Positions 60,067-63,065 of a stretch of DNA of 64,000 nt are shown here, in pieces. The position numbers and the translations under genes are program-made. Below the pieces are notes generated by a model that saw only the letters and a list, made by a program, of their open reading frames with translations, searched no databases and was not told the DNA's origin. Source of the DNA: Escherichia coli (GTDB taxonomy: Bacteria; Pseudomonadota; Gammaproteobacteria; Enterobacterales; Enterobacteriaceae); assembly GCF_003334255.1 (NCBI RefSeq), contig NZ_QOWU01000005.1. One strand, written 5' to 3'. How positions within the stretch are numbered: the stretch's first letter is position 1; the number at the start of each line of letters is the position of its first letter.

Positions 60067-62447
60067 CTGCTTTTCTCACATTTGCAGATTTTAAAAAAGC
60101 AAACAAAAACCTCCGTACATGATGTACAGAACAATCTACCAGGTAGTGGCGTCAGAAAACCTCCGGGCCGCCTGCACTTTCCGGAATGCGCCGGTTATGA
60201 AAAACCGGAAATTCAGTCTCTGTTGTAAGATGTACCCTCTGATACTACGTTTTCTCTGTGTATTTAACTCACTGTATTTATTGTCTTTTTAAGCTTGACT
60301 GATATTCTCCGGTCATAGTGTGCCGGATATACATCCCGTAAACTTCTCATTTTTATATAAAAATACCTGCACTCTCTTCAGCGCATCTGTCTCCTTTAAG
60401 TAAAAAATGTTTTTACGTATTGCTGTAAATTCATTTTAAATCAGTATATTACCTTGATATTGCTGTCTCCTGGTTTGATGCGTAATCGTTCTGCCTTTCT
60501 GGATGATTCTGGTGCTTCCGGGTGCATTCTCCTCTGCACATGCAACAGTTCGTCATCGCCACGCTCCCAAAAAGCATATAAAAACGAATCGAATTTGATA
60601 TTTTTTTCAATCGTTTTTCATAGGAATTTCGTAGGGTATTCTCCGCTATAACCTCCATATTTGCTGTCTTTTTCTTCATAAATCGTATGCAATGTAGCCT
60701 GTCTGTCAAGACCTCTTCTCTGCTGTTGAGGAGACGATCTCATTTTTGGTCTTTTCCGGGAGAGAGGCTGTCAGATGAGCGAGCCGGATATACTGTCAGA
60801 GGTACACCCCGTAGCAGACCTGTGCTCCCATTTCCGCGATCCGGAACCAACAACACCCTACGGTTAATACCATTTGAAGCGTCAGGTACTGCAGGAAGTT
60901 CCCCCCTGCGCGGACATCGGTTCCTGCCGACATCTCACAATACGGCCAGACTGTCATGCAGTAACACCCGCATGCGGTCTGCGGTTTTAAGCGCACTCTC
61001 CCGTTTTCAGTGCACCGATAATGCGTCATAGTAAGTCTGGGGGAAGTTACGGAATGCCTGTTAAGTGGTGCCGTGGGTGGAGACAGCTTACTTTTCTACA
61101 GCAACTGCAGTCATTCAGGATGATCAGGAGATATTCTGTCAATGTCACGATCCTGCCATTTTCGTACCCGCTAAGATACTTCCGTTACTGATGCTGTCCG
61201 CTTTTCACCATTTCATCCTCACTGACAGGCGTTGCGTTTTGGGTCATCACCACAGCTTTACGTTTCTCTTTTAACCGGTAACGCTCTCCTTTGATATTCA
61301 GCGTGGTTGAGTGATGCAGCAGTCAATCCAGGAGCGCTGTTGTCCGGCAACCACCATATCAACTTCTTCTCGGGTGTGGCGGAGAGGTGGTATCCTGGCT
61401 GAGTTTCGAAGCGAACCGTTCTTTTTGACGGGCGCATTTTACGTCCGGGCTGAATGTAGTAACGCGGCATGGAACGTCGGCCCGTATACCATTGCCTTAA
61501 TCTCCGCAAAGATAACCTCGTCATTCCGGACATTCTCTGCCAGGCATATGTCGATGTAATCCATAAACGATTTCAGCTTACCCCTTTTGTGGCCAGTCTT
61601 TCTGGCTGGCGGTTCAGGGGATGTTTTCTGGTTATCGTGTACCACAAAGCAGGGATATTGCCCCGATAGTCACATTTCAGATTGATCGCGGTCTGAAGAT
61701 GTGGCACTGAGGTAACGTGCTGGTGTCACTGGTATTGCTGAAGTTATGGTTTTTCGGGGTCAGGTGAGCCTGTTGTGTGTATGCTTTTTGTTCAGGTCAG
61801 AGGGGGACTGTGTGGACAGCGGCTTTTGTCTCCGGGCATTCACGCCTGAACGATGAATGCGATTTTCAGCAATATTTGTCTTTGTGACACTCTCTGGTTG
61901 AGAAGCTAATGCGCGCCCCTGTTTCCACAGAGAATGAGGCTTGCCATCAGCCGAAACATCAGTATTCCACGCCATACAGACGGCGCCTGACCATGTGCTG
62001 ATGCAGGTAAAATGTTTCACTACAACTGTTCGGGTTGCTATGCAACGAAACAGCGATTCTCACGATCTTTAACTGCAACGTTTTTCCGCCTGAAAGCTGA
62101 CTGCCTCCTGCTGAGGTGGGAGGCTATGATTCAGTGCGTTTATAGTCTCCGGGGTATGCATGTACCGGAGCATACCATTTCTGGTGGATAACAAGCCGGC
62201 ACATTCAGACTGCAGTGAAGATGGAGGCACCTGGTTGTGAAGAACGTTTCTGCCCGTGGCTGCTTCGCATCATCAATGGTATTCATACCCGCTCAGAAAT
62301 GACCGGGTGCTGAAGCCCTCCGTTATCGCGCAGTATAATGACGTATATGATCTGTGGACGAGTGAGCGGCGTGCCTGATGTACGCCGCTATTACTGTATT
62401 TTACCACAGGGCTGGTTTTCTGCTGCCAGCCCTGTGGTTCTCAGACA

Positions 62448-63065
62448 TCAACTGTGAGCGGCATCAACCGATGTACGGTATGCCATAAGCACGTACTGAT
62501 CCATCAGATTTGTCAGTGGTTCACTCTGACCCTGACGTGCAATGATCCATTGCTCCAGATCTTTTTCTGATTTGTGTTTCAGGTTTTTCGTCCAGTCGTC
62601 AAGGCTGTTTCCGGTCATTAAGTCAAGCCAGCAGAGCCAGACCAGTTTGAGACGTAACTCCGTGCCGCCAAACTGACGGAAGAGGCTGATCAGTTTGTTT
62701 GCCAGAGAATGTTGCTTCAGGCGCTCACATTCAGACAGCAGGATCCCTTCCAGCATCGGATGATGAACCAGCAGGTGTTCGCTGGTGCATAAATTCACCA
62801 CCAGATCATCATCCAGGGACGGGGAGCTCCGTTTGTCCGGACCATAAATCAGCCGGTGCAGACTCTGGGGAACGATGGCAATCTCCGGTTTTTCGCCATT
62901 GAATGACACCCACCCGGGCGTCAGATTATGGAAATAGTAGATATTCGGATGACACACGCCCCATGATACGGCGTGCCGGGTGAAGCCGGTCAGCCATTTC
63001 TGGTAGTTTTCATGGAGCAGCTCGTAACGGGTCTGATACTGTTGTTTCATTTTCATATTCCTCAC
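62448..63065 (-). CDS. hypothetical protein
   Basis: 205-aa ORF downstream of the alpA-like gene; no recognisable motif. Confidence 0.45.
   Translation of the reverse strand: MRNMKMKQQYQTRYELLHENYQKWLTGFTRHAVSWGVCHPNIYYFHNLTPGWVSFNGEKPEIAIVPQSLHRLIYGPDKRSSPSLDDDLVVNLCTSEHLLVHHPMLEGILLSECERLKQHSLANKLISLFRQFGGTELRLKLVWLCWLDLMTGNSLDDWTKNLKHKSEKDLEQWIIARQGQSEPLTNLMDQYVLMAYRTSVDAAHS

Follow-up and report, generated by a model that had tools for sequence, protein, structure and literature searches.

CP4-44 is a cryptic prophage or island of Escherichia coli K-12 with the gene order yeeP ... yeeS-yeeT-cbeA-cbtA-yeeW. Transcription attenuators that depend on a leader ORF or on ribosomes are exemplified by the trp and pyrBI leaders. 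In Pseudomonas aeruginosa, the AlpA protein is an antiterminator, assayed with terminator-lacZ reporters, with the binding motif GGGACGN5GGTA (PMC7969949). The island described here lies in a 64,000-nucleotide stretch of E. coli DNA (the window, to which all positions refer) and resembles CP4-44 in its chromosomal neighbourhood, on the dacD-sbmC-yeeA-yeeX side, and in its terminal set of yeeS, yeeT, cbeA, cbtA and yeeW together with a YeeP-like GTPase. Unlike CP4-44, it carries alpA, two orphan genes of 205 and 387 aa with a gap between them, and a dynamin/RdcB/patatin cluster. Literature searches by protein accession and by topic returned nothing on this locus. Among the neighbouring genes, PADLOC found only weak LeoA/LeoBC-like GTPase matches, which have no bearing on the gap.

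At 2.38 kb, the gap is unusual in a gene-dense genome. It is flanked by two minus-strand ORFs, one of 387 aa (58903–60066, RefSeq start 60054) and one of 205 aa (62448–63065). An earlier reading of the letters alone (the sequence-only reading) had held that about 2.3 kb here contained no credible ORF, and this was borne out. The longest ORF, on the plus strand at 60687–61031, encodes 114 aa, the others encode at most 91 aa and overlap one another, and each of the six frames contains 25–36 stops over 793 codons. On DNA of 99.9–100% identity in other E. coli genomes, RefSeq/PGAP annotates only two pseudogene fragments, which correspond to window positions 61185–61322 and 61337–61618. No tRNA, tmRNA or tandem repeats were found, and the internal repeats of the region are short chance pairs only. 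A lack of long ORFs is expected of any non-coding DNA, and the oddity of the gap is its length. Our main reading is that the gap is truly non-coding and composite, consisting of a decayed IS, filler and a long promoter/leader region that is possibly attenuated; we give this reading a probability of about one half. The gap and its features outside the conserved core are listed here.

60067–62447, no strand: whole gap without genes that separates the 387-aa and 205-aa hypothetical genes; longest ORF 114 aa; two IS21 pseudogene fragments in RefSeq
60835–61135, no strand: filler between the core and the IS end; 54–77% identity between lineages
61136–61622, minus strand: almost certainly a dead IS21-family insertion sequence (blastn against an intact IS21 copy, terminus alignment, PGAP pseudogenes)
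61136–61152, minus strand: outer end of an IS21-like right terminal repeat, TGTCAATGTCACGATCC in the window and TGTCAACGCCACGATGT in IS21
61188–61343, minus strand: last 52 residues (aa 214–265) of the IstB helper ATPase; tblastn 81% identity, E 2.7e-24; NCBIfam NF006616, E 2.9e-8
61337–61618, minus strand: residues 41–134 of the IstA transposase, frameshifted; tblastn 50% identity, E 1.5e-18; also called by PGAP
61623–62404, no strand: orphan non-coding DNA past the truncated IS end; no Pfam or NCBIfam match in any frame
62405–62438, minus strand: strong hairpin right after the stop codon of the 205-aa gene; −27 kcal/mol, z −5.1, with 0 of 200 shuffles folding as well

The assignment of 61136–61622 to a dead IS21-family element, which we regard as nearly certain, comes from similarity to IS21 at the level of DNA, protein and terminus. 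Compared with an intact IS21 copy, blastn gave 90% DNA identity over 61154–61342 (the 3' end of istB) and 87% over 61339–61622 (istA). The right terminal repeat begins with TGTCA at 61136, matches that of IS21 at 13 of 17 positions and is followed by a 14-bp deletion. As the similarity stops at 61622, inside istA, the left terminal repeat is judged to be missing, and the presence of a right end without a left end makes this a remnant rather than an intact member of the family. Unlike IS21, the remnant has only 487 of ~2130 bp and cannot move. About 1.4 kb has been lost internally, including all of istB except 52 codons, and istA is frameshifted and cut at both ends (PGAP labels it 'IS21 family transposase, frameshifted, incomplete'). 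The position of the right terminal repeat also means that the DNA at and below 61135 is the original insertion flank and not part of the IS. As all lineages down to 80% identity keep both the IstB piece and the core-side part of the gap (segment A), the insertion is likely ancient. The element would have inserted long ago, before the island lineages split, and would then have died as its left end was cut away and its interior was lost, leaving the present 487 bp. In many strains, the remnant is itself a landing site for IS100. The sequence-only reading had seen no recognisable protein signatures in the gap, which was mistaken, as 61188–61343 is the end of IstB and 61337–61618 a piece of IstA. 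Its suggestion of decayed genes holds for the IS remnant; in the remaining 1.9 kb, no decayed cellular gene was found.

The DNA on both sides of the IS remnant diverges quickly. The block at 60835–61135 occurs as two haplotypes, which differ by a 43-bp indel and further indels, and it has been swapped by recombination in lineages L027 and L070. Past the truncated IS end, 61623–62139 is missing from three other island lineages and 62140–62343 is conserved at only 69–83%; this segment was searched with the Pfam and NCBIfam profile libraries only, and neither gave a match. Both 60835–61135 and 61623–62404 have been repeatedly deleted or struck by IS100. They behave as junk, and in our model they would be unconstrained filler. 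According to its predicted fold, the hairpin at 62405–62438 is probably a 3'-end or terminator structure of the 205-aa gene, without a U-run.

Slow divergence was found in the part of the gap next to the 387-aa gene, where we distinguish the following features.

60335–60834, minus strand: conserved AT-rich non-coding core (substitution rates, nucleotide diversity, GC content, no conserved ORF)
60495–60559, minus strand: invariant block of 65 nt, identical in an alignment of the six most diverse island lineages
60682–60709, minus strand: sigma-70-like promoter, TTGACA-16 nt-TACGAT, directed toward the 387-aa gene; 10/12 consensus matches, −10 hexamer at 60682–60687, predicted start near 60675
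60358–60385, minus strand: terminator-like hairpin T1, stem 60385–60368, followed by a U-rich run; −7.9 kcal/mol, z −2.2
60378–60396, minus strand: Shine-Dalgarno (SD) sequence AAGGAG and three-codon mini-ORF ATG CGC TGA, its ATG at 60384–60386, overlapping the T1 5' arm (read from the sequence)
60092–60131, minus strand: terminator-like hairpin T2, stem 60131–60111, tail GGUUUUUGUUUGCUUUUUU; −8.7 kcal/mol, z −2.7

The core evolves more slowly than the adjacent neutral DNA. It differs by 0.056 substitutions per site from lineage L013 and by 0.110 from lineage L011, whereas the same lineage pairs differ by 0.17–0.18 in the IS21 remnant and by 0.20–0.25 in 60835–61135 (Fisher p 0.01 down to 1e-9). 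The core is 2–4 times slower than the dead IS 300 bp away. Nucleotide diversity among 44 variants of the locus has its minimum in the core, with the lowest bins at 60467–60566. The GC content is 0.38–0.40 over ~60000–60750, which includes the lower two-thirds of the core, and ~0.5 above. Of the 2093 E. coli genomes that carry segment A, 2088 have at least 80% of its length as a single piece, and the gap as a whole is uninterrupted in just 400 genomes. Disruption of the core is essentially absent from ~2090 genomes, in contrast to the neighbouring 1.3 kb, which has been repeatedly deleted or IS-struck. In lineages L004 and L010, which have lost most of the 387-aa gene, the core is still kept at ~96% identity; this agrees with an independent function no less than with a leader.

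About 39% of complete E. coli genomes have the core, CFT073, ST131 and ABU 83972 among them. In CFT073 (NC_004431.1), the promoter-like site corresponds to 2349807–2349834 and the invariant block to 2349957–2350021; strain SW4848 (NZ_CP107284.1) has DNA identical to the window. Judging from sequence matches, the locus outside the IS remnant was found only in E. coli islands. Plasmids contained three copies, all near-identical, and a metagenome scan with a 20-mer from the core recovered 68 loci, all of them E. coli-type copies of 84–100% identity that served as variants but add no evolutionary depth. Across ~100,000 species-representative genomes, a 20-mer from the invariant block had a single chance site, in Cytobacillus solani, and the 387-aa protein had no relative. 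Homology searches with this protein yielded 21 matches, of which those with a labelled source are all from E. coli and the others are fragments of 58–99% identity. As the 387-aa protein is an orphan, no intact ancestral gene for the gap was recovered from related islands.

The gap shows no coding constraint. Six-frame scans of the gap matched only IstB in NCBIfam and nothing in Pfam, and when the core was searched exhaustively with HMMER among 1.84 billion proteins, the only matches were mis-called ORFs from the same locus, in which TGA is read as W or the assembly is frameshifted. A word-indexed protein search with a six-frame segment A query gave no match, a negative that is unreliable for X-laden queries, as the exhaustive search did find ORF calls from the same locus. 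All 15 ORFs of at least 20 aa in 60067–61160 show far more nonsynonymous than synonymous changes among the 44 variants; the longer ones are broken in many of these variants, with frameshifting indels in some lineages. An intact gene with an unusual start, the case that the sequence-only reading had named against itself, was looked for and not found. A missed small protein gene in the core is highly improbable. Such a gene would be the 76/86-aa minus-strand ORF at 60449–60709, annotated by PGAP in a few genomes as a 79-aa hypothetical protein, or a nested 35-aa peptide (MTNCCMCRGEC...), whose ATG is preceded by GGGAG at a distance of 7 nt and whose first 27 codons lie within the invariant block. 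However, 1-bp and 2-bp indels leave the 86-aa ORF intact in just 33 of the 44 variants, it has 24 nonsynonymous against 7 synonymous changes, and it has no homologue outside the locus. Substitutions lack codon periodicity (9/7/6), and the absence of synonymous variation from the invariant block points to constraint on the nucleotide sequence rather than on a protein. Selenocysteine insertion or stop read-through at the conserved in-frame TGA at 60618–60620 was rejected, as the flanking frame shows nonsynonymous changes only and indels in two lineages. Regarding type I toxin-antitoxin systems, no conserved ORF with a hydrophobic stretch of membrane-spanning length was found among the ORFs compared, nor a promoter-like site on the opposite strand.

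We tentatively suggest that the core and the 280 bp below it would serve the co-directional cargo genes as promoter and long 5' leader, a reading of the motifs that falls slightly short of even odds. The cargo would comprise the 387-aa gene, the YeeP-like GTPase and the dynamin/CrfC-like, RdcB-like and patatin-like genes, and would extend on through yeeS-cbtA; the neighbouring genes from alpA to yeeW are all on the same strand. Transcription would begin near 60675, at the TTGACA-16-TACGAT promoter, and RNA polymerase would meet two weak intrinsic terminators, T1 near 60368 and T2 near 60111. The 387-aa gene would then be reached only by read-through, which would amount to attenuation control. 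We infer from the motifs and their arrangement that the promoter and hairpins may be used, that transcription may enter the 387-aa gene and that termination may be regulated. The sequence-only reading had offered a leader, noncoding RNA or regulatory region for the whole gap; this proved plausible only for 60092–60834, which contains the slow core, the promoter-like site and the two hairpins, and a structured RNA was not detected there.

Both promoter hexamers are identical in all 44 variants and four spacer positions vary; with so few variable sites, this difference falls short of statistical significance. As a promoter scan of the region found 2 sites where shuffles led us to expect 4.4, i.e., fewer than by chance, a lone 10/12 match is weak on its own. 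T1 and T2 are both weak hairpins. Changes in the T1 stem exchange G-U for G-C or G-C for G-U, so that pairing is maintained, and the loop varies; T2, which lies ~40–60 nt upstream of the possible starts of the 387-aa gene (60054 in RefSeq, 60066 for the ORF), is preserved in the majority of the 16 forms in which this stretch occurs among the 44 variants, also in those that have a 9-bp duplication. The SD, ATG and stop of the mini-ORF are kept in 44 of 44 variants, and the 4-nt spacer varies. As the codons of the mini-ORF overlap the T1 5' arm, a ribosome there would block hairpin formation. Similar to ribosome-dependent attenuators, the locus thus combines a strong SD with a very short ORF that overlaps the 5' arm of a terminator (60378–60396 and 60368–60385). 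However, unlike in those attenuators, the ORF here is just three codons long, counting the stop, and reading of the sequence shows neither an alternative antiterminator pairing nor regulatory codons.

Because island lineages recombine, as illustrated by the mosaics L027 and L070, low divergence of the core may reflect gene conversion or recent spread and not selection. The whole gap could then be decaying DNA, an IS remnant with eroded relics, in which the core has been homogenised by recombination or recent spread and the motifs arose by chance in AT-rich DNA. We consider this unlikely, though several results agree with it besides the existence of mosaic recombinants. The core folds no more stably than its shuffles (z −0.47 for the minus and −1.21 for the plus strand), compensatory changes affect one pair among the 86 predicted, a count whose power is limited by low divergence, promoter-like sites are not enriched, and the restriction of the locus to E. 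coli leaves a shallow time depth for judging selection. Rfam 15 gave no match at E ≤ 1 over 57000–64000 and only noise at E ≤ 10 over 60050–60900. On the other hand, inert DNA does not readily account for a core that shows 2–4 times lower divergence than the dead IS lying 300 bp off in the same lineage pairs, that stays essentially undisrupted in ~2090 genomes next to 1.3 kb that is often deleted or IS-struck, and whose variable positions avoid the promoter hexamers, the SD, ATG and stop, and the hairpin stems.

Alternatively, the core could be a free-standing small RNA gene, specific to E. coli islands, that would encode a ~315-nt minus-strand RNA running from ~60675 to T1 (~60358) and acting by base pairing through 60495–60559. 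The promoter and terminator bracket the most conserved segment, the conservation outlasts deletion of the downstream 387-aa gene, and no coding signature was found. The same lack of thermodynamic and covariation support for a fold, and of an Rfam match, weighs against this explanation, however, as does complementarity to the rest of the window at chance level (at best 14–15 nt) and a length of 315 nt, which is long for a trans-acting small RNA. We therefore regard a small RNA gene as quite improbable.

Returning to the promoter and leader, the island also encodes a candidate regulator. Similar to AlpA antitermination in Pseudomonas, the same strand carries an AlpA-family HTH gene ~2.4 kb upstream, within the ORF at 63144–63545 (the family was assigned by RefSeq and by Pfam PF05930 on near-identical copies), and a promoter-like site is followed by intrinsic-terminator-like hairpins ahead of cargo genes. 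Here, however, the hairpins are ~300 and 560 nt downstream rather than tens of nt. GGGACGN5GGTA is absent from the promoter spacer, and its only match within two mismatches in the gap lies in the IS remnant; this is the Pseudomonas motif and may not be that of the E. coli homologue. The RfaH/ops (JUMPStart) element GGCGGTAG does not occur in the gap, and its only matches in the window are at 1819, 13691 and 54672. In its most specific form, our proposal is that the promoter and two terminators would gate the cargo array as far as cbtA, with read-through brought about by AlpA, by a ribosome on the mini-ORF or by both, or else that the core would yield a ~315-nt T1-ended, E. coli-specific island small RNA. 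This is speculative and rather improbable, and it is with the same low expectation that we suggest that such a switch would be not yet described for CP4-44-type islands of E. coli.

Most of the gap needs no new biology, and its IS DNA is already flagged in RefSeq as pseudogene fragments. The gap illustrates how the island gathers, and then slowly sheds, dead IS DNA. The part worth keeping is the unannotated 0.5-kb core, as it heads a long same-strand array of poorly understood island genes, among them those for the GTPase, for dynamin-like and patatin-like proteins and for the CbtA/CbeA pair. If the core is inert, this is an ordinary decayed intergenic region. If it is the control region of these genes, it is where the activation of such cryptic islands should be sought, and it would offer a simple test of whether enterobacterial AlpA proteins antiterminate.

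The gap between the 387-aa and 205-aa genes (60067-62447) is certainly non-coding. The sequence-only reading had described about 2.3 kb without a credible ORF, and this was borne out: the longest ORF has 114 aa (60687-61031, plus strand), the others have at most 91 aa, and each of the six frames carries 25-36 stops. PGAP annotation of identical DNA contains two pseudogene scraps only. IstB was the sole NCBIfam match to six-frame translations of the entire gap, and Pfam matched no frame of 60067-61153 or 61623-62447. Rfam searches over 57000-64000 found nothing at E up to 1; with the limit relaxed to 10, the AT-rich core (60335-60834) gave nothing beyond noise. 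Scans of the gap turned up neither tRNAs nor tandem repeats, and no internal repeats of note. GC content is 0.38-0.40 at 60000-60750 and about 0.50 in the remainder of the gap. A library of 1.84 billion representative proteins, searched exhaustively by HMMER with all six frames of 60300-60860, gave 31 matches. The 11 that were retrieved were ORF calls from the same E. coli DNA, or chimeric calls containing it, with TGA read as W or TAA as Y or with frameshifted or rearranged assemblies; the remaining 20 were short, of high identity and of the same kind. Spurious 'proteins' of 134-190 aa in public libraries (entries P0022-P0030) arise from non-coding 60300-60860 by these routes (TGA translated as Trp, TAA as Tyr, or a frameshifted assembly), and a match to such an entry does not demonstrate a gene.

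About one fifth of the gap is certainly a dead IS21-family element. The claim that the stretch lacks any protein signature was thus wrong for 61188-61618, where pieces of IstB and IstA are encoded; in PGAP one scrap is an 'AAA family ATPase, missing N-terminus' and the other an 'IS21 family transposase, frameshifted, incomplete'. Alignment with a complete, plasmid-borne IS21 gave 90% identity for 61154-61342, which matches the istB 3' end and 31 bp past its stop, and 87% identity for 61339-61622, which matches the part of istA encoding residues 41-134. As these pieces abut, a deletion of about 1.4 kb has removed most of istB and the remainder of istA. The encoded protein pieces match IstB over residues 214-265 (81% identity, E 2.7e-24) and, with frameshifts, IstA over residues 41-134 (50% identity). 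Positions 61136-61152 read TGTCAATGTCACGATCC, where the IS21 outer terminal repeat is TGTCAACGCCACGATGT, and are followed by a 14-bp deletion. This match puts the true right end at 61136, and the DNA up to 61135 is the element's old insertion flank. At 61622 the similarity breaks off sharply, showing that the left end is lost. As the IstB piece adjoins segment A (60067-61153) in every island lineage found, including those only 80-87% identical overall, the insertion is older than the divergence of these lineages. The remnant itself contains an intact IS100 at 61488/61489 in ST131, CFT073 and ABU 83972, and at about 61588 in one further lineage. In two other island lineages, deletions begin at the same coordinate (61488-61490; the loci concerned, for insertions and deletions together, are L003, L006, L009, L017, L004 and L011), which suggests that IS100 prefers this target or that it mediated the deletions.

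The window is part of the E. coli chromosome, with the his operon, the O-antigen cluster and the colanic-acid cluster. At 13691-13698, in a gap of about 1 kb upstream of the gene cluster starting at 14414, is an exact copy of the ops element (GGCGGTAG), which likely serves the O-antigen operon as its JUMPStart/RfaH site. The island extends from about 47 kb onward, at the position of CP4-44 in K-12. In a 99.9% identical genome, its end adjoins yeeX(tmaR)-yeeA-sbmC-dacD and its cargo includes yeeS, yeeT, cbeA, cbtA and yeeW. All genes around the gap lie on the minus strand:

63144-63545, minus: ORF containing an AlpA-family regulator
62448-63065, minus: 205-aa orphan gene
58903-60066, minus: 387-aa orphan gene (RefSeq start 60054)
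57947-58858, minus: YeeP-like GTPase
after the GTPase, minus: 798-aa dynamin/CrfC-like protein, then RdcB-like and patatin-like proteins

The cluster at 52545-58858 (YeeP-like GTPase, dynamin/CrfC paralogue, RdcB-like protein and patatin-like phospholipase) takes the place of flu in CP4-44 of K-12. Its 798-aa paralogue scores 556 bits against NF007368, under the 1146-bit cut-off, and PADLOC gave weak LeoA/LeoBC-like matches to the cluster. The 205-aa gene's stop codon is followed directly by a hairpin with a perfect stem of 12-13 bp (62405-62438, minus strand; -27 kcal/mol, z -5.1, with 0 of 200 shuffles as stable) and no U-run, which is probably the 3' end or a stabiliser of the alpA/205-aa transcript.

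Segment A was found in 2093 of 5426 complete E. coli genomes, at 87-100% identity throughout, and at least 80% of it is in one piece in 2088. Segment C (61623-62447) reaches 95% identity or more in about 1900 genomes, and in about 700 others it is represented by 200 bp at about 70%. Only 400 genomes have the whole gap as one contiguous stretch. Nothing was found outside E. coli in searches with the 387-aa protein, in 20-mer searches of genomes and metagenomes, or in plasmids. Among about 100,000 species-representative genomes, a 20-mer of the most conserved block turned up only at a chance site; in metagenomes its only matches were E. coli-type copies (84-100% identical), and plasmids carry three near-identical copies. 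The 387-aa protein has 21 relatives in a library of 5.8 billion proteins, with all source-named matches labelled E. coli, none among the about 100,000 species-representative genomes, and no family match in Pfam, NCBIfam or PADLOC. The ends of its gene are 95-98% identical between lineages at the DNA level, and its hypervariable centre (59635-59834), inside a Pro/Thr/Asn-rich segment, is 46-67% identical.

The window was aligned to the most distant island lineages (L013/L014, L011 and L004/L010) and to a set of 44 distinct variants.

Substitutions per site between the window and two distant island lineages
Core, 60335-60834: 0.056 (L013), 0.110 (L011)
Dead IS, 61136-61345: 0.170 (L013), 0.184 (L011)
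60835-61135: 0.201 (L013), 0.249 (L011), plus 58-59 gap columns
60055-60334: 0.147 (L013), 0.141 (L011)
387-aa gene, 5' part: 0.127 (L013), 0.155 (L011)

The core is less diverged than the dead IS (Fisher, p = 6e-6 for L013 and 0.01 for L011) and than 60835-61135 (p = 1e-9 and 6e-7), and 65 nt within it (60495-60559) are identical across the six most diverse lineages. L004 and L010 keep the core at about 96% identity although most of the 387-aa gene is deleted. The DNA to its right behaves as disposable: L013 lacks 61346-62139, L011 lacks 61490-62139 and L004 lacks 61490-61975. Positions 60835-61135 and 61623-62404 are probably filler. That the core too is pure junk, its conservation produced by recombination, is a doubtful but serious alternative. 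L027 and L070 are recombinants, window-like except at 60735-61234, where they are L004-like. These metagenome copies, 97-100% identical to the window outside that 500-bp block from a divergent L004-type haplotype, are direct evidence of recombination between island lineages. As segments move between lineages, low divergence does not prove that the core is under selection.

The core is not a gene, and an unrecognised small protein is very improbable. PGAP calls a 79-aa hypothetical protein in a few strains from an 86-aa ORF (60449-60709, minus strand), but this ORF is intact in only 33 of the 44 variants, is broken by 1-bp and 2-bp indels, and shows 24 nonsynonymous against 7 synonymous changes. 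All 15 ORFs of at least 20 aa behave in the same way, and core substitutions have no codon periodicity. The most protein-like frame, reading YEEKDSKYGGYSGEYPTKFL and KTIEKNIKFDSFLYAFWERGDDELL on either side of an in-frame TGA present in every lineage, shows replacement changes only.

The core and the DNA below it carry signals on the strand shared by all neighbouring genes:

60709-60704 and 60687-60682, minus: promoter-like site, TTGACA, 16-nt spacer, TACGAT (10 of 12 consensus positions)
60386-60378, minus: mini-ORF of three codons, ATG CGC TGA, overlapping the 5' arm of T1
60385-60368, minus: terminator-like hairpin T1 (-7.9 kcal/mol, z -2.2), then GGUAUUUUUAUAU
60131-60111, minus: terminator-like hairpin T2 (-8.7 kcal/mol, z -2.7), tail GGUUUUUGUUUGCUUUUUU

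The promoter-like hexamers are invariant in the 44 variants, with four variable positions in the spacer. In T1, about 290 nt downstream, stem changes preserve pairing and the loop varies. The mini-ORF is preceded by AAGGAG (60396-60391), and its Shine-Dalgarno sequence, start and stop are kept in all 44 variants, with a variable 4-nt spacer. T2 lies about 40-60 nt upstream of the possible start codons of the 387-aa gene and is kept in most variant forms of the stretch. A 9-bp duplication (ATGTACAGA) beside it, in the 60117-60125 region, separates lineages of 95-97% identity (L003, L008) from the window, and the hairpin is present in both forms.

From this anatomy we infer that the core and the 280 bp below it may be the promoter and long leader of the cargo array, which fits the lack of room for a further promoter between T2 and the start codon. 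The sequence-only reading, which had offered decayed genes, a long 5' leader or non-coding RNA, or a regulatory region, was partly right. An independent RNA of about 315 nt, running from the promoter-like site to T1, is unlikely, more so than junk: the predicted 322-nt RNA (60676-60355) does not exceed shuffled sequences in stability (z -0.47, or -1.21 for the opposite strand), 1 of its 86 pairs is compensatory, and complementarity of the core to other parts of the window is at chance level. With a promoter followed by two weak terminators, cargo transcription would need read-through. A ribosome on the mini-ORF might block T1, a lead suggested by the layout. By analogy, another lead would be the island's upstream AlpA-family protein as a candidate read-through factor. 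AlpA of P. aeruginosa loads onto RNA polymerase between the -35 and -10 hexamers, after which the polymerase bypasses downstream intrinsic terminators (PMC7969949; PMC9371919). Unlike in that system, the Pseudomonas binding motif is absent here; the RfaH ops element is also absent from the leader.

Most of the finding is the ordinary decay of an IS within an island, which RefSeq already shows. The gap also includes one unannotated, conserved non-coding element, restricted to E. coli.
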